A stretch of 64,000 nucleotides of DNA from Patescibacteria group bacterium (GTDB lineage Bacteria > Patescibacteriota > Patescibacteriia > UBA1558 > GWA2-36-10): the NCBI GenBank assembly GCA_018819405.1, contig JAHJQF010000001.1, positions 513,377-577,376 of the forward strand, given 5' to 3'. Positions 10,282 to 47,581 of this stretch are shown here, piece after piece. Positions within the stretch are counted from its first letter, which is position 1; every line of letters begins with the position of its first letter. The notes beneath the pieces were generated by a model that saw only the letters and a program-made list of their open reading frames with translations, was not told the DNA's origin and made no database searches. The translations under genes were made by a program, and so were the position numbers.

Positions 10282-12312
10282 TTATTTCAAAAATTCTTTT
10301 ATTGATTTTTTTGTCTGAGTAATATTTTTGTTCCAGTGTATTTTTATACCTTGTTTTTCCATGCGGCGAAACCAAGTCATTTGCCTTTTGGCGTAGTGGC
10401 GGGTATTTTTTTTGATTTTATCAATGGCAGTTTCTAAGCTTATCTTGCCATCCAAATATTCTATGATTTCTCGGTAGCCAATACCAGTCAATGAGCTTAG
10501 TTTTTTGTGCGGGTATTTTTTGTAGAGTTTTTTGACTTCTTGTATTGATCCGTCACCGAACATTCTATCAACTCTTTTGTTTATTTTTTGGTATAGCTTG
10601 TCTCTGTCAGGGGAGAGTCCGAAGACAACAAAGTCATAAGGGCATTTTCTCAGCTGTGGATTTTTTGGATTTAAATCATAATTTTGTAAAATTGAAGATA
10701 TATAAAGTCCGGTGCCACCGGCAATAATCGGCAGTTTGTTTTTGGCCAAGATTTTTTTAATAGTTTTAAAAGCGTCCTGTTGCCAGTTATAAAGATTGTA
10801 TTCTTTATCAGGAGTGGTGATATCCAGCATATGATGGACAATACCTTTCATTTCCTCTTTGGTGATTTTATTGCTGGCAATATTCATACCTTTATAAATT
10901 TGTCTGGAATCAGCCGATATTATTTCGCCATTAAATTGTTTGGCAATTTTTACAGCTAAGTCAGATTTGCCGGCAGCAGTGGGCCCAAGGATAACAGCTA
11001 TTTTATCTTTCAATTTTGCTTTGACACCCCAGTGTTTGGCTTCTATTATATTGGCATTGTAAAATTTTCCGACATTAAGTGGTTTTTTGCTTTCAATGTG
11101 TACGGCCACATAGTTTGATAATTTGCCTATATTCAGATAATTGTCTCCGGTTTTGTTGACGGCATCTATCAAAACTTCTCGCTTTTGACCAATTAAGTTT
11201 TTATTAAATTCCAAAGATTGCTGTTCAATTATTGTGTTCAGTTTTTGCCAGCGGGATTTTTTGGTATTTTTTGGCACATCATCTTTGTATAGGCGCCAGG
11301 CTACAGTGCCAGCTCGGCTAGAATATTGGCCCAGGTAGGTCATATTATATTTCATCTCTTTGGCCAATTTGAGTGTGGCTTGAAAATCTTTATTTGTTTC
11401 CGAGCAAAAGCCTACTATAATATCTGTTGAAATTGCTATATTTGGTATTTTTTTTCTAATTTTTTTTATTAATTTTTTGTAGTCAGCTATTTTGTAATGG
11501 CGGTTCATTTTTTTAAGAATTTTGTTTGAGCCTGATTGTACAGGTAGATGCAGATAATCATTGAGATTTTTGCATTCAGCCATGATGTTTATGAGTTTGT
11601 CACTCATATCATAAGGATGGCTGGTTAAAAATTTTAACCAAAAATGATCTGATAAACTATCAATTTTTTTTAGTAATTCTGGGAAATCCAATTCTTTCTT
11701 ATTTTGTTTTATCAAATCTTTCCCATAGCTATTTACATTTTGTCCAAGGAGTATTATTTCTGTATAGCCTTTTGCTAGTAGTTCCTGGATTTCTTCTATT
11801 ACAGCTTTTGATGGTCTAGATACTTCTCGTCCACGGGTATAGGGGACAGCACAGTACGAACAAAATTTATTACAGCCTGTCATGATAGGTACATAGGCAC
11901 GATGTTTTGATTTGTAGCTAGGGCTGATATCAAAAAAATCTGGCAAAGCTAATTTTTCTTCGGGGGCAATATTTTTTAGTTGATCGGCCAAATTGTGAAG
12001 GTTTTTTATATCAATAAAAAGATCAAATTTATCAGCCAATTTTTTTTGGTCACGCTCTAAAATGCAGCCTGATAGCAGAGTTATTAGGGGTCTTTTTTCT
12101 TTGATAATTTGCCAATCTCTTAGTTTGCTATATAGTCTATCTACAGCCGCTTGTCTGACAGAGCAGGCTACAATACCAATAAGATCAGCATCTTTTTCCT
12201 GATTGGTCTCTTGGTAACCGAGCTTTTTCAAAACTGTCGCCAGACGTTCGGCATCAGAATAATTCATCTGACAGCCAAATATAATAAGATGAAATTTCTT
12301 TTTTCTTTGCAT
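10282..12312 (-). CDS. miaBA: fused tRNA-i6A37 methylthiotransferase MiaB / tRNA dimethylallyltransferase MiaA
   Basis: N-terminal half is MiaB radical SAM (CSYCAVPYTRG, TRAM end). C-terminal half starts IAVILGPTAAGKSDLAV (MiaA P-loop) and continues with the DSRQIYKGMNI MiaA motifs in one 676-688-aa frame. The ATG at 12312 is the likely start; the track start is TTG. Confidence 0.8.
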   Translation of the reverse strand: MQRKKKFHLIIFGCQMNYSDAERLATVLKKLGYQETNQEKDADLIGIVACSVRQAAVDRLYSKLRDWQIIKEKRPLITLLSGCILERDQKKLADKFDLFIDIKNLHNLADQLKNIAPEEKLALPDFFDISPSYKSKHRAYVPIMTGCNKFCSYCAVPYTRGREVSRPSKAVIEEIQELLAKGYTEIILLGQNVNSYGKDLIKQNKKELDFPELLKKIDSLSDHFWLKFLTSHPYDMSDKLINIMAECKNLNDYLHLPVQSGSNKILKKMNRHYKIADYKKLIKKIRKKIPNIAISTDIIVGFCSETNKDFQATLKLAKEMKYNMTYLGQYSSRAGTVAWRLYKDDVPKNTKKSRWQKLNTIIEQQSLEFNKNLIGQKREVLIDAVNKTGDNYLNIGKLSNYVAVHIESKKPLNVGKFYNANIIEAKHWGVKAKLKDKIAVILGPTAAGKSDLAVKIAKQFNGEIISADSRQIYKGMNIASNKITKEEMKGIVHHMLDITTPDKEYNLYNWQQDAFKTIKKILAKNKLPIIAGGTGLYISSILQNYDLNPKNPQLRKCPYDFVVFGLSPDRDKLYQKINKRVDRMFGDGSIQEVKKLYKKYPHKKLSSLTGIGYREIIEYLDGKISLETAIDKIKKNTRHYAKRQMTWFRRMEKQGIKIHWNKNITQTKKSIKEFLK

Positions 12313-12346
12313 AGAAGAAATTGTATATTTTTCCTTATAAAAAATC

Positions 12347-12380
12347 AACCCTTTGACTACGCTCAGGGTTGATTATTTTT
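12347..12380 (-). terminator. bidirectional hairpin terminator
   Basis: caaccct...agggttg stem with T-runs on both strands, between the 12381 stop and the miaBA start. Confidence 0.5.
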
Positions 12381-15292: not shown

Positions 15293-17047
15293 TTATAAAA
15301 GAGTCAGGCTACGATTTTTGATGTCGGTTTTTATTTTTGAGATAAATTCTTTTTTGTCTATTTCCAAAAGATCTTGTTTGCCGCGTACTCTGACAAATAG
15401 TTTGTCAGAATTCATTTCTTTGTCACCAATGACTAGAGTATAAGGAGATTTTTCTTTGGCCGATTTGCGTATCTTGTTGCCGACGGTTTCATCAGACATA
15501 TCAATTTCAGTTATTATATTTTCTTCAGCAAATTCATCGGCAATTTTTTTAGCAAACTCAATATGATTTTGATTGACAGTTAGTATTTTGATATGGACAG
15601 GGGAGAGCCATAAAGGAAAGGCACCACCATAATGCTCAATCAAAATCCCTAAAAATCTTTCGGGAGAGCCAATAATGGCTCGGTGAATCATAACGGGAGT
15701 TTTTTCTGTACCGTCTTGGTCGGTATAACTGAGCTCAAATCTTTTTGGCATATTAAAGTCCAATTGAATGGTGGATATCTGCCACTGACGTGACAAAGCA
15801 TCTTTGGCAATTATATCCATTTTTGGCCCATAAAAAGCCGCTTCACCTGTAGCTGACTCGTATTCTATTTTATTTTCTTTGAGTAGTTTTTCTAAGAGTG
15901 TCTGAGATTTTTCCCAAACTTTTTCATCGCCGAGGTATTTTTCTTTTTGTTCGGGATCCCATAGTGACAACCTGACATAATAATTTAGACCATAAGTTTT
16001 TAGAGCTTCATTTATAATGCTCAAGACATTTTTGAATTCTGACTCTATTTGATCTTCACGGCAGAAACTGTGTCCATCGTCTTGAGAAAAACACCTTAGT
16101 CTGGTCAGGCCAGACAATTCTCCTGGCTTTTCGTCTCTAAAAAGATTCGCAAAATCAGAGTATCTGATAGGCAAATCACGATAACTTCTTTTTTTGCTAG
16201 CAAATATCTGAGTATGCTGAGGGCAATTCATTGGTTTTAGAAAGAATTCGTCTTTACTATAGTGAGAGCTAGCTGAAATCATATCATCTTTGAATTTTTC
16301 CCAGTGTCCGGAAACATGAAAAAGTTCAGCTCTGTTCATCTGTGGTGTGTGGACTTCTTGAAAGCCTATTTTATTTTGTAATTCATTAGAAAAATTTATA
16401 ATTTGGCGTCTGACATGAGCGCCTTTGGGAGTATAAAGAGGCATACCAGCACCGACTAGCTCTGAAAAAGTAAATAGATCCATTTCTTTACCAAGCTTGC
16501 GATGGTCTCTTTCTTTGGCTTGTTTTAGCTTTTCCAAATAATCATCCAGCTCTTCTTTTGTTTCAAAAGCTACGCCATAGATACGAGTGAGCATTTGGTT
16601 TTTTTCATCACCACGCCAATAAGCGCCGGCAGTAGTAGTGAGCTTAAAGGCGTCAATATTTATCTCTGAGCTTTTTTCCACGTGTGGTCCAGCGCACAAA
16701 TCAGTAAATTCACCGGAACTGTAAAAACTAATTTCTTCGTCTTCTGGCAAGTCATTGATTAGTTCAATCTTAAATATTTGATCGCTAGCCATTTTTAGGG
16801 CAGAGTCTCTAGCCGCTACTTGTTTGGAAAAATTAATGTTTTGTTTTATGATTCTTTTCATTTCTTTTTCCAGTTTTGGCAAATCATTGTCTGATAGTTT
16901 ATCAGGCAATAGAAAATCATAATAAAAACCATTTTCTATAGTTGGCCCAATTGCTAGTTTGGCATCAGGAAACTTTTTGAGTATTGCCATAGCCATGATG
17001 TGAGACAGAGAGTGTCTTACGCGGTGCATTTTTTCTTGTTTGTCCAT
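15293..17047 (-). CDS. thrS: threonine--tRNA ligase
   Basis: 584-aa class II aaRS with the HxxxH...CxxH editing/second-site motif and class II cores. Confidence 0.9.
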   Translation of the reverse strand: MDKQEKMHRVRHSLSHIMAMAILKKFPDAKLAIGPTIENGFYYDFLLPDKLSDNDLPKLEKEMKRIIKQNINFSKQVAARDSALKMASDQIFKIELINDLPEDEEISFYSSGEFTDLCAGPHVEKSSEINIDAFKLTTTAGAYWRGDEKNQMLTRIYGVAFETKEELDDYLEKLKQAKERDHRKLGKEMDLFTFSELVGAGMPLYTPKGAHVRRQIINFSNELQNKIGFQEVHTPQMNRAELFHVSGHWEKFKDDMISASSHYSKDEFFLKPMNCPQHTQIFASKKRSYRDLPIRYSDFANLFRDEKPGELSGLTRLRCFSQDDGHSFCREDQIESEFKNVLSIINEALKTYGLNYYVRLSLWDPEQKEKYLGDEKVWEKSQTLLEKLLKENKIEYESATGEAAFYGPKMDIIAKDALSRQWQISTIQLDFNMPKRFELSYTDQDGTEKTPVMIHRAIIGSPERFLGILIEHYGGAFPLWLSPVHIKILTVNQNHIEFAKKIADEFAEENIITEIDMSDETVGNKIRKSAKEKSPYTLVIGDKEMNSDKLFVRVRGKQDLLEIDKKEFISKIKTDIKNRSLTLL

Positions 17048-17054
17048 ATTTTTA

Positions 17055-17104
17055 CCCCGTTAAATGTTCGCCCCGCGAACACTGCAAAGCAGTATTTAAC
17101 GGGG
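17055..17104. repeat. CCCCGTTAAAT / ATTTAACGGGG palindrome with an inner GTTCGC/GCGAAC hairpin
   Basis: Lies between the thrS start and the leader terminator. Same TIR type as the elements at 22921, 35871 and 46736/47005. Confidence 0.6.
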
Positions 17105-17398
17105 TGAAAATTAAAATAACCCAAGACTAGTTAAGTCTTGGGACCCTGAGTGACTCCTAAGGAGTCAAACGGGCGGTTCCACCCAAGTTCCTCCTATAAA
17201 AGGAGGCAACTCATTTATTTTATTGAGATTTAGTCCCTGTTTTGAGGGATTCCATATGCTGGAAGAATAGTTGGTTGCTATTCCAATCATCTAAGGCGTT
17301 TATAATTATAGCTCATTTTAATATTTGTTGTAAACTATTGACAAAATAGTAAATACATGATATACTTAGATATTATTTTGAACTTTAAATTAGGTCAA
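17105..17398 (-). promoter_or_regulatory. putative T-box riboswitch leader of thrS (promoter, stem I, T-box, terminator)
   Basis: The minus strand reads GGAGGAACTTGGGTGGAACCGCCCG, matching the T-box core GGGUGGNACCGC. It is followed by the terminator CCCAAGACTTAACTAGTCTTGGG and a T-run. AACTTGGG of the T-box can pair with the 5' arm of the terminator as an antiterminator. A TTGACC-17-TAATAT promoter lies at 17370-17398 on the minus strand. A candidate ACC specifier sits in the loop CAACCAA. Confidence 0.5.
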
Positions 17399-17502
17399 AA
17401 AATATGGCCTTAGCAGTTAGTTTGGATATAAATCATCTGGTCTGACTGCTACGGCTATAATGTAACACGGACGTAGTAAAACTCTAGAATTGGAGGAAAA
17501 TC

Positions 17503-18003
17503 ATGAAGAAGCTCACCATCCTGTTCGCTTTGGTGTTGACTCTGCTTGCTTTGACCACGATCTTGGTCAACAGGCATGAGGGTGGTGTCTACCGACTGGA
17601 AGTTTCCGGGGACAGCATCAGTGATATGGTTCGTCGAGGCAATTATGATTGGACCAACTCCAACATCAATGATGACTACTTCACTGCTGATGCTCCGCAC
17701 GAAGCGAACATCATTATTTTCAAGCACTTCGGCGAGGACATGAGCACGAAGGCCGTGCTCAAAGCTCTGGATGACGACGGCTTACGTCCGGCAACTATGT
17801 CCGAGCTACTCGAGCTTGGCATTTGCTATCCCGAATTGCAGAAGCAGTTTCCTATCGTCGCCCTCGGTTCTATCTCTCAGGATCCGTATGGCGACCGCTC
17901 TGTCGGTTTCCTCTACTCCGTTGATGGTCAGCGCGAGCTCGGCCTGGACTGGATCGACGATGACTGGTACGACCACTTTCGTTTCGCCGCTGTCCGCAAG
18001 TAA
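17503..18003 (+). CDS. secreted hypothetical protein in a GC-rich island
   Basis: About 55% GC. Strong GGAGG ribosome-binding site 8 nt upstream. N-terminal signal peptide MKKLTILFALVLTLLALTT. No recognizable domain. Confidence 0.5.
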   Translation: MKKLTILFALVLTLLALTTILVNRHEGGVYRLEVSGDSISDMVRRGNYDWTNSNINDDYFTADAPHEANIIIFKHFGEDMSTKAVLKALDDDGLRPATMSELLELGICYPELQKQFPIVALGSISQDPYGDRSVGFLYSVDGQRELGLDWIDDDWYDHFRFAAVRK

Positions 18004-40545: not shown

Positions 40546-41928
40546 ATGGATATTTATTTATACAACAGTTTACACAAAAAAAAGGAAAAATTTGAGCCAA
40601 TCGCCAAGAAAAAGCTCGGTCTTTATACTTGCGGTCCGACTGTTTATGATTATCCACATATTGGCAACTTGGCAGCCTATGTTATCTGGGACATTTGGAA
40701 GCGCTTATTTATTTCTCAAGGTTACAAGGTAAAACATATTATGAATGTCACTGATGTTGGACATTTGACATCAGATGCCGATGATGGTGAAGACAAGATG
40801 GAAAAAGCTAAGCGTCAGTCAGGCAAATCAGCCTGGCAAATTGCTGATTTTTTCTTCAAGGTTTTTCGCAACAATCTCCACAACCTAAACATCTTTGAGC
40901 CGGACAAATTTTTGCGAGCAACTGAGACTATCAAAGAACAGATTGCCTTTGCCAAAATTTTGGATGAAAAGGGATATTTGTATAAGATTTCAGATGGTAT
41001 GTATTTTGATACTTCCAAGATTAGTGACTACGGAGTATTGGCTAATTTGCAAGACGTAGATTTGCAAGAAGGGGCTAGAGTAGAAAAAAATAATGAAAAG
41101 AAAAATCCGACTGATTTTGCGGTCTGGAAGTTTTCTCCAGAGGATAAAACTCGTGATATGGAATGGGAGTCTCCTTGGGGACTAGGATTTCCAGGTTGGC
41201 ATTTGGAATGTTCGGTCATGAGTCAGATAGAACTAGGAGATACTTTTGATATACACACTGGTGGTATGGATCATCTTACTGTCCATCATCCCAATGAAAT
41301 GGCACAATCGGAAGCAGTGACTGGTAAGTTGCAAGCTAATTATTGGCTACACAATGCTTTTGTAAAATATGAAGGCGGCAAAATTTCCAAATCCAAAGGC
41401 AGCTTTTTTACTCTTGAAGATTTGAAAGCCAAGGGATTCTCGCCAATGTATTTTCGTTATCTTATTTTGCAAAACAATTATCGTACTCCACTCAATTTTT
41501 CTTGGGAATCTTTGCTAGCCGCCAAAAATGGATTATTAAATATTATAAAAGAAATAGCTTATTATCCAAAACCAAAAAAAGCTGACAAGCAGATATTGGA
41601 GGATTTTTATCATTCTTTGTCTGATGATCTCAATACTGCCAAAGGATTGGCTATATTACAAAGTGTGATTGACTCAGATATGGATGATGGCCAGAAGCTG
41701 GCTACTATTTATAAGATGGACGAAGTTTTGGGCTTGTCTTTGGAAAACTTGTCAGCCAAAGCGCTAGATATTCCCGATGACGCTTTGATTATTTTGTCCG
41801 AGCGTCAAAAAGCACGGGAGGAAAAAAATTGGGAGTTATCTGACAAATTGAGAGATAAGTTGTTATTATTGGGTATAGAAGTCAAAGATAGTCCAGAGGG
41901 TCAAAAACCATTATATTTGAATTTATAA
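40546..41928 (+). CDS. cysS: cysteine--tRNA ligase
   Basis: HIGN (HIGH-type) and KISKSKG (KMSKS) motifs. 460 aa. Confidence 0.9.
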   Translation: MDIYLYNSLHKKKEKFEPIAKKKLGLYTCGPTVYDYPHIGNLAAYVIWDIWKRLFISQGYKVKHIMNVTDVGHLTSDADDGEDKMEKAKRQSGKSAWQIADFFFKVFRNNLHNLNIFEPDKFLRATETIKEQIAFAKILDEKGYLYKISDGMYFDTSKISDYGVLANLQDVDLQEGARVEKNNEKKNPTDFAVWKFSPEDKTRDMEWESPWGLGFPGWHLECSVMSQIELGDTFDIHTGGMDHLTVHHPNEMAQSEAVTGKLQANYWLHNAFVKYEGGKISKSKGSFFTLEDLKAKGFSPMYFRYLILQNNYRTPLNFSWESLLAAKNGLLNIIKEIAYYPKPKKADKQILEDFYHSLSDDLNTAKGLAILQSVIDSDMDDGQKLATIYKMDEVLGLSLENLSAKALDIPDDALIILSERQKAREEKNWELSDKLRDKLLLLGIEVKDSPEGQKPLYLNL

Positions 41929-42130: not shown

Positions 42131-42380
42131 CTGTTTCGGGTACCGTGCTCTTTTGGGAGCGAGTCGGCAAGGCTAACTGGCGAGAAGGTCTTGCGCAAAA
42201 AGACTGGGAAAAAGTGGATTCCCCGGTACCCGATGATTTTTCTTGCCTCACAACGAGGTGTCGCTCCTTTGGGAGGATTTTTAGCCGGGGTTTACGAGTC
42301 CCTAGGCTGACAATCGAGGCATTGGGCGCCTCCGACACCTTGTTGAAGCTTTGTACTTTTTTACATAATGCACTTTTGTG
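42131..42380 (+). ncRNA. structured RNA candidate between tRNAs (unknown class)
   Basis: About 50% GC. Long-range helices CGGGTACCG/CGGTACCCG and AGGTGTCG/CGACACCT enclose multiple local hairpins. Co-transcribed with the tRNAs between the promoter at 41975 and the terminator at 42692. No match to tmRNA, SRP or RNase P motifs that I can verify by eye. Confidence 0.3.
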
Positions 42381-42381
42381 C

Positions 42382-42453
42382 CCCCCGTTGGTCCAATTGG
42401 ACAGGACACCTGCCAGTCAGGTAATATAGGTTCAAATCCTATACGGGGTACCA
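42382..42453 (+). tRNA. degenerate tRNA-like element (T-arm + acceptor + CCA, abnormal D/anticodon arms)
   Basis: Good T-arm ATAGG-TTCAAAT-CCTAT and a 3' acceptor ACGGGGT-A-CCA. The D region is the perfect palindrome GTCCAATTGGAC and the anticodon arm folds with a 5-nt loop. Either a tRNA pseudogene or an unusual tRNA. Confidence 0.3.
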
Positions 42454-45749: not shown

Positions 45750-46742
45750 ATGGCCAAAGCAAATAAAAAAATATATTTACTCTTAGCTGGCGGTACTTGT
45801 ATTTTGGATAAAGATAGCCGTATTTTTGCAATTAATGAAAAAAAAGACATTGATTATTGGTTTGATTTAATGCCAGAGCTGCGTATTTTGGCTGACATAG
45901 AAACAGTTTTGATTTCTAGCGAAGACCAAGTAGTAGACACTAGTGTCTGGCAGAAAATTGCCAAGAGTATTGTAGACAGAGAAAAATCAGCCGATGGTTT
46001 TGTAGTAGTGACAAAAATAGACCAACTTGTCAACACCTCTTTAGCAATTAATTTTTTGTTGCAGAATTTTAAAAAGTCTATTATTTTTACCAGTTCCCAA
46101 GTCAGCGGCAGTAGTTTTGTAGACAAAAAAGAAGTAATAAATAAACTAAAATCAAAACACGGTGGGTTAGGCCTAAGGACCAATTTGATAAACGCTATTC
46201 AAATTGCTTGTGAGCCTCTTCCACAGACAGCTGTTTTGTTTGGTACTAGGTTAATCGCTTCTACCAAAGCAATAGTAGATCTTCAGGATAGTATAAACAA
46301 TTTTATCAGTGTGGAAGGTAATTATTTAGCCAAAATTGATTTTGGTATAAATTTGAAATCGGGACTCAAATATTCCACCAAAAAAACAGAGATTTATCCC
46401 AGTATGTCAGCCAAAGTTTTGGCAATCTATGATATCCCAGGTATTGATTGGCAGTTTGAGCAAACTGATATGGCTAAATACGACGGGCTATTTATCAAAA
46501 TATCTCCCTTTCAAAACCTTGAAAATGTCAAAATAAAAAAAATAAATAATTGGAAAATACCGACAGTAATTTTTAATTCACGATATGTACCAGTTGTAAA
46601 AGGAGCGGTATCTGTATCAGGTTGTACTTTTAACTCAGCTCTTATCAAAACTATTTGGGCCTTGTCAAACAAAAAGAAACTACCAGATTTTGAAAATGTG
46701 ATGAAGCAAAATATAATTGGTGAGTTTAATTCACCCCGTTAA
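45750..46742 (+). CDS. asparaginase/glutaminase-family protein (putative)
   Basis: N-terminal IYLLLAGGTCIL resembles the TGGTIAG threonine motif of L-asparaginases. About 330 aa. The C-terminal SPR* is encoded by the palindromic element. Confidence 0.4.
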   Translation: MAKANKKIYLLLAGGTCILDKDSRIFAINEKKDIDYWFDLMPELRILADIETVLISSEDQVVDTSVWQKIAKSIVDREKSADGFVVVTKIDQLVNTSLAINFLLQNFKKSIIFTSSQVSGSSFVDKKEVINKLKSKHGGLGLRTNLINAIQIACEPLPQTAVLFGTRLIASTKAIVDLQDSINNFISVEGNYLAKIDFGINLKSGLKYSTKKTEIYPSMSAKVLAIYDIPGIDWQFEQTDMAKYDGLFIKISPFQNLENVKIKKINNWKIPTVIFNSRYVPVVKGAVSVSGCTFNSALIKTIWALSNKKKLPDFENVMKQNIIGEFNSPR

Positions 46743-46760
46743 ATAAATTTAAATCATAAT

Positions 46761-47018
46761 ATGAATCATTATGTATATATATTAAAAAGTAAGAAAGATA
46801 ATAACTTCTATGTAGGTTATACTAAAGATTTAAATTTAAGATTTAAGCAACACCAAGAAGCTAAAGTAGAATCAACTAAAAACAGAAGACCATTAAATTT
46901 GATATATTATGAATGTTGTTTAAATCAACAAGATGCTACTAAGAGAGAAAAATATTTAAAAACATATCTTGGTAGATATTATATCAAGAAAAGGCTTAAA
47001 TCTTATTTAACGGGGTAA
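46761..47018 (+). CDS. GIY-YIG nuclease family protein (85 aa)
   Basis: YVYILKS...NFYVGYTKDLNLRFKQH is a GIY-YIG motif. The gene is flanked by CCCCGTTAAAT (46736-46746) and ATTTAACGGGG (47005-47015), and its stop lies in the right repeat. Confidence 0.7.
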   Translation: MNHYVYILKSKKDNNFYVGYTKDLNLRFKQHQEAKVESTKNRRPLNLIYYECCLNQQDATKREKYLKTYLGRYYIKKRLKSYLTG

Positions 47019-47020
47019 AT

Positions 47021-47581
47021 ATGAAAATTTATTTTTATACCAATCAGGAGCTAAATAACACTGACGCCAAAGAAATTATCAATCACTTGAGGCGGGCAGA
47101 TATTGAGGTCATTAGTAGCTTGAGTAGCTCTTCAGATACGCAACTTGAAAGAGTGGATGCTTTTGTTTTTCAGGGACAAAAATTTGATACTAAGGCTGGA
47201 TATTTGACAGCTCTAGCTTTGGCGCAGAGCAAAGAGGTGCTTTGTCTTTTGCCTAGTGGTAGCAAAATTGATAGCTCGTTGGCCAGCCTGAGAGATAATA
47301 GGAATTTGGCCAAGCATTTATTGGTAGAATTTTATACTGATAGTGACTTGTCAGATAAACTGGAAAAATTTTTGACCAAATTGGACAAAAAAACTATCCG
47401 GGATTTGTTTAATATCAAATATACTTTGAGAGTATCGGGCAAGATAAATGATTATCTCAATTGGAAAGCCAGAGAAAAATCTGTCAAAAAAGCCGACTGG
47501 ATAAGGGACAACATACAGGATTTGATGAAAAATGATGAGAAATATCAGGATTTTTTAAAAAATAAATTTAAGGCTGGCTAA
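47021..47581 (+). CDS. hypothetical protein (possible nucleoside 2-deoxyribosyltransferase-like N-domain)
   Basis: ADIEVIS...DAFVFQGQKFDTKAGYLTALALAQSKEVLCLLP loosely resembles the NDT/Rcl fold. Low confidence. Confidence 0.3.
   Translation: MKIYFYTNQELNNTDAKEIINHLRRADIEVISSLSSSSDTQLERVDAFVFQGQKFDTKAGYLTALALAQSKEVLCLLPSGSKIDSSLASLRDNRNLAKHLLVEFYTDSDLSDKLEKFLTKLDKKTIRDLFNIKYTLRVSGKINDYLNWKAREKSVKKADWIRDNIQDLMKNDEKYQDFLKNKFKAG

Follow-up and report, generated by a model that had tools for sequence, protein, structure and literature searches.

Gene regulation in the reduced, host-dependent Patescibacteria is largely unknown (PMC11665869), and one locus of a Patescibacteria group bacterium (GenBank assembly GCA_018819405.1, contig JAHJQF010000001.1) raises the question whether such an organism can control a threonyl-tRNA synthetase gene (thrS) by a T-box, i.e. 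by an RNA leader that senses tRNA charging, with a tRNA-reading domain reduced to a single small hairpin. The leader in question lies on the minus strand of a stretch of 64,000 nucleotides (nt), here called the window, to which all positions refer. Our analysis shows that it is a genuine T-box-type leader of thrS, with an ordinary 3' half and an unusual miniature decoding domain. We consider it likely that this RNA senses tRNA-Thr and controls thrS by transcription attenuation, with the miniaturized domain doing the decoding.

T-box core, antiterminator and terminator

The gene in question, the open reading frame (ORF) 15293-17047 (minus strand), encodes a threonyl-tRNA synthetase (ThrRS) of 584 amino acids (aa) with the Pfam domains tRNA_SAD, tRNA-synt_2b (the class II core) and HGTP_anticodon and without an N-terminal TGS domain; its nearest relatives, at 61-65% identity, are all ThrRS proteins of Patescibacteria or the candidate phyla radiation (CPR). 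A 407-nt minus-strand spacer, which separates this gene from a small upstream ORF, contains GGGTGGAACCGC at 17184-17173, the sole exact match to the T-box core GGGTGGNACCGC in the 64-kb window, and 100 dinucleotide shuffles of the window yielded no exact match to this core at all. The longer conserved T-box sequence (GGGUGGNACCGCG) is likewise present as a single match, AACUUGGGUGGAACCGCC at 17189-17172, with none expected, and together with the antiterminator layout the unique core delimits the T-box sequence AACUUGGGUGGAACCGCCC at 17189-17171. Because the core is unique, a terminator lies adjacent and the downstream ORF is a ThrRS, the starting observation of the first-pass annotation, i.e. 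a T-box core on the minus strand upstream of thrS, is real and far beyond chance, and the three Pfam domains uphold its naming of the gene.

The core is embedded in an antiterminator of the expected layout. Helix A1 is formed by CUUGGG (17187-17182) and CCCAAG (17142-17137), helix A2 by GCCC (17174-17171) and GGGU (17146-17143), and the 5' strands of the two helices flank the 7-nt bulge UGGAACC (17181-17175). Within the A2 loop, a lineage-specific hairpin, GACUCC-UUA-GGAGUC (17166-17152), forms an insert of 15 nt; across the family of related leaders described below, the length of this loop ranges from 3 to 54 nt. A terminator scan detected an intrinsic terminator at 17142-17107 (CCCAAGACT-TAACT-AGTCTTGGG followed by TTATTTTAATTTT in the DNA), the only such site in 16800-17800, which in the RNA corresponds to the hairpin CCCAAGACU-UAACU-AGUCUUGGG (17142-17120) and the U-run UUAUUUUAAUUUU (17119-17107). 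Since the terminator shares CCCAAG with A1, the two structures are mutually exclusive, just as the first-pass annotation had proposed in letting the 5' arm of the terminator pair with the T-box region: CCCAAG complements CUUGGG directly 5' of UGGAACC. Folding the two alternatives confirms that they compete. The terminator hairpin itself amounts to -13.6 kcal/mol, and for the 3' domain the terminator conformer reaches -32.2 kcal/mol versus -23.6 kcal/mol for the antiterminator; in an RNA that ends before the 3' arm of the terminator, the antiterminator is the minimum-energy fold. A terminator that is more stable, combined with a nascent RNA that is antiterminated, is the relation expected of a T-box in which uncharged tRNA tips the balance.

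The position of these elements also bears on the level at which control operates. In the window, the U-run comes directly after the helix with which the antiterminator competes, and this helix ends 73 nt before the AUG. A Shine-Dalgarno (SD)-like G-rich motif is found upstream of 11 of the 54 window genes and most start codons follow A/T-rich sequence, i.e. translation initiation seems to be largely SD-independent, and because so few genes have such a motif, control of transcription fits better than SD sequestration. In the family as a whole, terminators of approximately -9 to -30 kcal/mol include the 3' strand of A1, and often also that of A2, with U-runs 20-100 nt before the start codon; terminator and U-run are clear in about 18 of 28 members by an automatic rule and in several more by eye, the latter because the rule miscalled several relatives by stopping at U-runs inside long stems.

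The decoding domain and its conservation in related leaders

The comparative evidence comes from 160 thrS loci, taken from one GTDB genome per species and from metagenome contigs. Many Patescibacteria loci in this set carry the pattern ..GG UGGAACC GC.. just upstream of thrS, and all 23 leaders examined by script show the layout of A1, 7-nt bulge and A2, with A1 strands that differ from leader to leader yet stay complementary (CUUGGG/CCCAAG, ACCGAG/CUUGGU, GUCUGG/CCAGAC, UUCGAG/CUCGAA). A covariance model, termed R1, was built from 18 Patescibacteria thrS leaders, with the window excluded. In the window it finds the leader at 17291-17135, over its full length and with 57.2 bits (E=1.4e-12), the next match having 13.8 bits, and among the 160 loci it recovers approximately 30 full-length leaders. 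In the resulting alignment of 30 leaders, 89.8% of pair cells are paired compared with 63.2% after shuffling, with none of 500 shuffles reaching the observed values, and all 15 modelled pairs, including every pair of Stem I, change on both sides, with 146 compensatory cells, although these pair counts are somewhat inflated by an alignment that had been fitted to the model. When the partners are slid by 1-3 columns, pairing falls to 30-46%. The pairs of A1 and A2 are 95-100% paired, with compensatory changes, and the bulge UGGAACC is invariant in all leaders; RNAalifold independently predicts Stem I, A1 and A2. The closest homologue of the window's leader, in the metagenome-assembled genome of a member of the Komeilibacteria (locus L005), is 74% identical and shows compensatory changes in Stem I and in the terminator, the latter being conserved with a G-U change. 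Together, the unique core, the competing folds, the R1 match and the covariation support what the first-pass annotation had put forward, a T-box with a threonine specifier before thrS.

Where this leader departs from the textbook is its 5' half. A hairpin search revealed an ultrashort Stem I of 7 base pairs (bp), formed by GGAAUAG (17284-17278) and CUAUUCU (17270-17264), with the apical heptaloop CAACCAA (17277-17271), which displays the threonine codon ACC (17275-17273), i.e. a codon that matches the downstream gene, followed by a purine (A). The first-pass annotation had noticed an ACC in the loop context A-ACC-A and had found Stem I non-canonical by eye, and both remarks hold: its Stem I is reduced to this one hairpin, and the K-turn (kink-turn) and distal-loop motifs of a canonical Stem I, which it had named as decisive, are absent in the case of the distal loop and incomplete in the case of the K-turn. 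This reduction is not evidence against a T-box, however, since the comparative data show that it is lineage-wide, about 30 related uncultivated bacteria having the same reduced form. Nearly all of the leaders examined have a hairpin of 4-8 bp with a 7-9 nt apical loop reading CUACCAA or a near variant, and 28 of the 30 aligned leaders have a Stem I hairpin with a Thr codon at loop positions 3-5, ACC in 27 cases and ACG in one. L091 has no Stem I, and L008 is a weak match whose Stem I the model left unaligned and which shows ACA at the loop triplet only after realignment by eye. As ACC accounts for just 21% of the Thr codons in the window genes (ACU for 51%), its dominance in the loop is not an effect of composition; conserved codon preferences of T-box specifiers have been described before (PMC2494555). 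With the loop restricted to Thr codons while the stems vary freely, the triplet is the specifier.

Directly before Stem I lies the box GAUGAUU (17291-17285), conserved in the family alignments with the consensus GAUUG and aligned by RF00230, the Rfam T-box model, to its own GAUGA positions. This box may be what is left of a K-turn's 5' half, the 3' GA partner of which is missing in the window sequence. By eye, a subgroup of relatives (L093, L048, L051, L102, L097) has a K-turn-like frame, ..UGA-[hairpin]-GAGC.., around the hairpin, of which the window's own subgroup keeps only the 5' GAUUG. Three further leaders (L013, L112, L144), located upstream of thrS or of an ORF of 412 aa and also below the RF00230 gathering score, have a Stem I that is longer, shows AGAGA/CUGAGA-like motifs and places the specifier in an internal loop of the type GAAA-ACG-A or GAAU-ACC-A. 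Read by eye and from sequence, these longer forms and the subgroup frames suggest a series of Stem I reduction.

The probable start of the leader follows from its promoter. A probable promoter with 11/12 consensus positions, TTTACA (17334-17329) and TATAAT (17310-17305) with an 18-nt spacer (minus strand), has an identical -10 box in the same place in L005, and in most family members the -10 box of a TTGACA/TATAAT-like promoter ends 7-15 nt upstream of the point where the model match begins, this point being about 6 nt from the Stem I hairpin; measured to the hairpin itself, the distance from the promoter is about 10-20 nt. Because this 11/12 promoter sits where related leaders have theirs, transcription of the leader probably starts near 17298, a site deduced from the promoter, and because the promoter lies just before the hairpin, a long Stem I could not accommodate its 5' strand here. 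The promoter TTGACC-17-TAATAT (17398-17370) preferred by the first-pass annotation is probably wrong, as it scores 9/12 compared with 11/12 for TTTACA-18-TATAAT. On the plus strand, a strong promoter-like sequence, TTGACA-17-TATACT with an extended TG (17338-17366), stands back to back with the thrS promoter and faces away from it; it may drive an unannotated ORF (17503-18003, plus strand), which overlaps an ORF of 90 aa on the opposite strand.

Between Stem I and the T-box sequence, minimum-energy folding gives a hairpin termed P2a, UCCA-GCAUA-UGGA (17263-17251), which abuts Stem I and whose position is occupied by a hairpin of unrelated sequence in L001, L065, L081, L012, L027 and L007. It is followed by P2b, UCCCU-CAAAAC-AGGGA (17249-17234), and a conserved CUAA (17233-17230), and a hairpin directly 5' of CUAA recurs in at least 13 leaders. 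RF00230 aligns P2b to Stem II, though without the GAA/AGUA bases of the S-turn, and P2b plus CUAA may be the counterpart of Stem II or of Stem IIA plus F-box. Since shuffled sequences often match such short helices, the per-sequence shuffle test of P2b is weak, and it is recurrence only that argues for this middle domain and from which we infer possible roles of P2a, P2b and CUAA. Further 3', family alignments delimit a stretch rich in purines, AAUGAGUUG (17215-17207), for which the family has the consensus AAAGAGUG, and next to it Stem III, CCUCC-UUUUAUA-GGAGG (17206-17190), which is thus flanked by purines, with AAUGAGUUG before and AA after it. Every family member folds a hairpin that ends 2 nt before A1, and that of the window aligns to Stem III of RF00230; this stem is outside the covariance model and the pair counts given above, and MAFFT could not put it in register.

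Some relatives differ in what follows the T-box. In four loci (L001, 1951-2490; L082, 389-1514; L012, 1595-2188; L018, 2008-2496) another gene stands between the Thr T-box and thrS. It encodes a NUDIX hydrolase in L018 and a GNAT acetyltransferase (Acetyltransf_3) in the others, L082 having a tandem pair whose second member was assigned by sequence similarity only. By analogy, these intervening genes would be co-regulated by tRNA-Thr charging. In L091 (482-1084), a T-box 3' domain with Stem III, A1 (CUAGA/UCUAG), the UGGAACC bulge and a terminator seems to follow directly on a promoter TTGACT-17-TATAAT; downstream of it lie a gene for a PemK/MazF-type toxin and, after that, thrS.

Proposed mechanism and alternative readings

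How could such a leader work? Transcription would start near 17298, and the 7-bp Stem I would form about 14 nt from the 5' end to display ACC and the following A in its heptaloop CAACCAA, with which the anticodon of tRNA-Thr(GGU) is expected to pair. The two small hairpins and CUAA may buttress this short codon-anticodon helix. With uncharged tRNA, the 3' end, predicted to read UCCA, would pair with UGGA in the 7-nt bulge and stabilize the antiterminator (A1 CUUGGG/CCCAAG, A2 GCCC/GGGU), such that RNA polymerase reads into thrS; with the tRNA charged or absent, the more stable terminator (17142-17120 and U-run) would form and transcription would stop. In all of this, we infer tRNA binding, charge sensing and read-through from T-boxes that have been studied. 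The bulge also carries a prediction about the partner: all thrS T-boxes in our set, which come from four phyla including Firmicutes and Chloroflexi, read UGGA, which from sequence predicts U73 as the discriminator base of tRNA-Thr, and the tRNA-Ala (A73) and tRNA-Ser (G73) of the window would not match it.

Several observations weigh against this reading. At its gathering score of 93 bits, RF00230 does not match the leader. The platform for the tRNA elbow, which the AG bulge and the distal loop form on a long Stem I, is missing, RF00230 replacing 68 distal positions by 11 nt, and the specifier stands in an apical heptaloop rather than in an internal loop with an S-turn and with a K-turn at the base of Stem I. 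In the Stem II region, the alignment to RF00230 leaves the GAA/AGUA bases of the S-turn unmatched and has deletions at the IIA/B positions; no convincing IIA/B pseudoknot was seen by eye in the leader, the region being occupied by the two small hairpins and CUAA. A codon-anticodon contact of 3 bp without obvious support may be too weak or too slow for co-transcriptional control, and the U-run is interrupted (UUAUUUUAAUUUU). As for the discriminator base, neither the window nor the 108 of 160 related loci scanned yielded a gene for tRNA-Thr. To these points the inflation of the pair counts has to be added.

With respect to RF00230, the expectation of the first-pass annotation that the leader would match this model fails at the gathering score and stands locally: with permissive filters, 16950-17550 gives 29.7 bits (E=9.4e-5 for 601 bases), RF00230 is well ahead of every other Rfam family, and the alignment spans the full model, with Stem III, T-box and antiterminator at high posterior probability. 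What keeps the score below the threshold is the shrinkage of Stem I to a hairpin of 7 bp. In a scan of 37 related loci, no thrS leader of Patescibacteria attained the gathering score, compared with 103-107 bits for three Firmicutes thrS leaders in the same set, which also have UGGA. Rfam-based pipelines would therefore miss these leaders.

Other explanations were weighed as well. The leader might be a decayed relic, in which the 3' domain and the terminator survive as a constitutive or otherwise controlled attenuator and Stem I no longer binds tRNA. All known contacts with the tRNA elbow and of the S-turn are indeed missing, the literature holds that transcriptional T-boxes need the platform (PMC7583486), and L091 seems to have nothing but the 3' domain directly after its promoter. 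Decay appears improbable, however, given that the short hairpin and its loop have been kept across lineages with ThrRS proteins only 45-65% identical, that compensatory changes have altered the stems whereas the triplet has remained a Thr codon with an A after it, which points to purifying selection on the loop, and that UGGAACC is invariant. Short forms of Stem I are known only from translational T-boxes, and control might thus be exerted on translation, as with ileS of Actinobacteria, possibly via a hairpin of -30 kcal/mol at 17106-17054 that has GGGGU just before the AUG and takes in G-rich sequence 6 nt from the start codon. This we regard as very unlikely, since the antiterminator competes with a helix that leads into a U-run well before the AUG, SD-like motifs are rare in the window, and the hairpin is a dispersed repeat, with at least five copies in the window, that is absent from homologous leaders.

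Even less likely is an ordinary T-box with a long Stem I whose 5' half was overlooked. It would have to start at the promoter-like site 17398-17370 (9/12) and make use of about 100 nt of unassigned sequence upstream, but RF00230 found no AG-bulge, distal-loop or specifier-loop motifs in 16950-17550, the stronger promoter at 17334-17305 is positionally conserved in the family and in L005, and the ACC hairpin is closed by 7 bp without an internal loop. In E. coli, ThrRS represses its own thrS mRNA by binding to a tRNA-like loop, and a 7-nt loop on a stem does resemble an anticodon arm; a ThrRS-binding operator of this kind is argued against by a loop that carries the codon ACC and not the anticodon GGU. 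The leader also contains an ATG-initiated ORF of 41 codons (17290-17165), which might encode an attenuation peptide; we rejected this candidate, as the ORF has two Thr codons and its ATG is not conserved (relatives have GCGAUUG or CUGAUUG). Neither an operator nor a leader peptide would explain the T-box core and its bulge, and we regard the probability of either as close to negligible. A tRNA-Thr-sensing T-box that acts by transcription attenuation thus remains the reading we prefer.

Neighbouring features and relation to known T-boxes

The stretch between terminator and start codon (17106-17054, minus strand), i.e. the hairpin considered above, lies just under the lower limit set by the first-pass annotation and is a dispersed palindromic repeat outside the T-box, CACCCCGUUAAAU...AUUUAACGGGGU, of -30 kcal/mol. 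Its arms, ACCCCGTTAAAT and ATTTAACGGGGT, occur as at least five inverted pairs in the window (17106-17054, 35868/35920, 46733/47016, 22926/22962 and 5028/5135), and the ACCCCGTTAAAT pattern has 15 matches in the window at no more than two mismatches compared with 5.5 expected. As a second regulator of thrS, whether by SD sequestration or as a ThrRS operator, this hairpin was rejected because it is a dispersed repeat, is absent from homologous leaders and would act where SD motifs are rare. The pair at 46733-47016 encloses a gene for a GIY-YIG nuclease of 84 aa (46761-47018), the other copies are palindromes of 35-110 bp, and the 3' arm frequently stops 6-10 nt short of a start codon (those of thrS, dnaE and the ORF at 47021); the family looks like a tiny mobile element with derivatives resembling miniature inverted-repeat transposable elements. 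Other palindromic repeats precede the thrS start in L005 (2415-2485) and, after the terminators, in L097, L098 and L014, e.g. GTCATCCTGAACTAGTTTCAGGATC and GTCATTCCCAACTTGATTGGGAATCC; they differ from the repeat family of the window, and that of L005 is located at the same place.

Elsewhere in the window, a few features touch upon tRNAs and their synthetases. Besides thrS, cysS (40546-41928, plus strand) is the other aminoacyl-tRNA synthetase gene among the annotated ORFs of the window, and because its upstream spacer is short (about 92 nt) and has no T-box core, T-box control here does not extend to cysS. A tRNA-like gene at 42382-42453 (plus strand), located between tRNA-Ala(GGC) and tRNA-Ser(UGA), scores 45.6 bits with RF00005 and was missed by ARAGORN; with an anticodon stem of 4 bp, a loop of 5 nt, a C1-U72 mismatch and an encoded 3' ACCA, it may represent a pseudogene or else a tRNA-like RNA that does not decode. 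The GC-rich spacer between tRNA genes at 42131-42380 (plus strand) looks structured (CGGGUACCG...CCGGUACCCG) and has no match in Rfam even at E<0.1. Finally, the ORF 10282-12348 (minus strand) of 688 aa carries UPF0004 and radical SAM domains of the MiaB type together with an IPP transferase domain of the MiaA type and, judged by these domains, would fuse two consecutive enzymes of tRNA-A37 modification.

Where, then, does the thrS leader stand among known T-boxes? With the canonical T-boxes of RF00230 it shares the core, the 7-nt UGGNACC bulge between A1 and A2, Stem III with its flanking purines, the mutually exclusive intrinsic terminator, a cognate specifier followed by a purine and even the gene, since T-boxes of thrS are conserved in at least 29 of 34 Firmicutes (PMC2494555). 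In contrast to them, it has a Stem I of 7 bp with the specifier in an apical instead of an internal loop. It lacks the AG bulge, the distal loop and the S-turn, and its K-turn is incomplete; its Stem II region is reduced to CUAA and one or two small hairpins, its A2 loop bears an additional hairpin, its 29.7 bits fall short of the 93 set for gathering, and its host belongs to the Patescibacteria. According to reviews, transcriptional T-boxes generally require a long Stem I with an elbow-binding motif in order to capture tRNA fast enough (PMC7583486), and intermediate and ultrashort forms of Stem I belong to translational T-boxes, mostly of ileS in Actinobacteria, for which the Stem II domain is essential (PMC7583486, PMC7913692, PMC12990946). 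Compared by the description of that class in reviews, loop geometry apart, our leader resembles it in a Stem I without elbow platform, such that the tRNA would be held by its anticodon and its 3' NCCA end only. The actinobacterial leaders, however, sequester the SD sequence, control ileS and rely on the Stem II S-turn and the IIA/B pseudoknot, whereas the window has a terminator and U-run far from the start codon, thrS with ACC, and no evident S-turn or pseudoknot. A lineage-specific extra hairpin in the antiterminator/terminator domain is also described for the staphylococcal glyS T-box ('stem Sa'; PMC9177973), which differs in gene, host and details of position and keeps a long Stem I.

Full-text searches, with subscription journals and database-only annotations outside their scope, yielded no paper in which T-boxes are mentioned in connection with Patescibacteria, CPR, Parcubacteria or Saccharibacteria, and the class II model of TBDB was searched only in Actinobacteria (PMC7778990). 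Whether the Patescibacteria harbour an unannotated, phylum-wide class of miniature transcriptional T-boxes, without elbow platform or recognizable S-turn and with the specifier in an apical heptaloop (consensus CUACCAA) on a hairpin of 4-8 bp approximately 10-20 nt from the transcription start, is a proposition that we hold in even balance. If such leaders work, charge would be sensed co-transcriptionally by anticodon and NCCA contacts alone, contrary to the view that the Stem I platform is essential, and they would represent a natural minimal T-box of about 150 nt. A sensor of tRNA charging on thrS is also a concrete and testable regulatory circuit, and phylum-native riboswitch parts could serve as genetic tools. 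Set beside the known systems, the leader combines two features, a platform-less Stem I and an intrinsic terminator; the T-box itself is known and it is this variant that is new, and, conserved as it is, a platform-less T-box with a terminator would be a compact model RNA and a natural counter-example to the view that a long Stem I is required.

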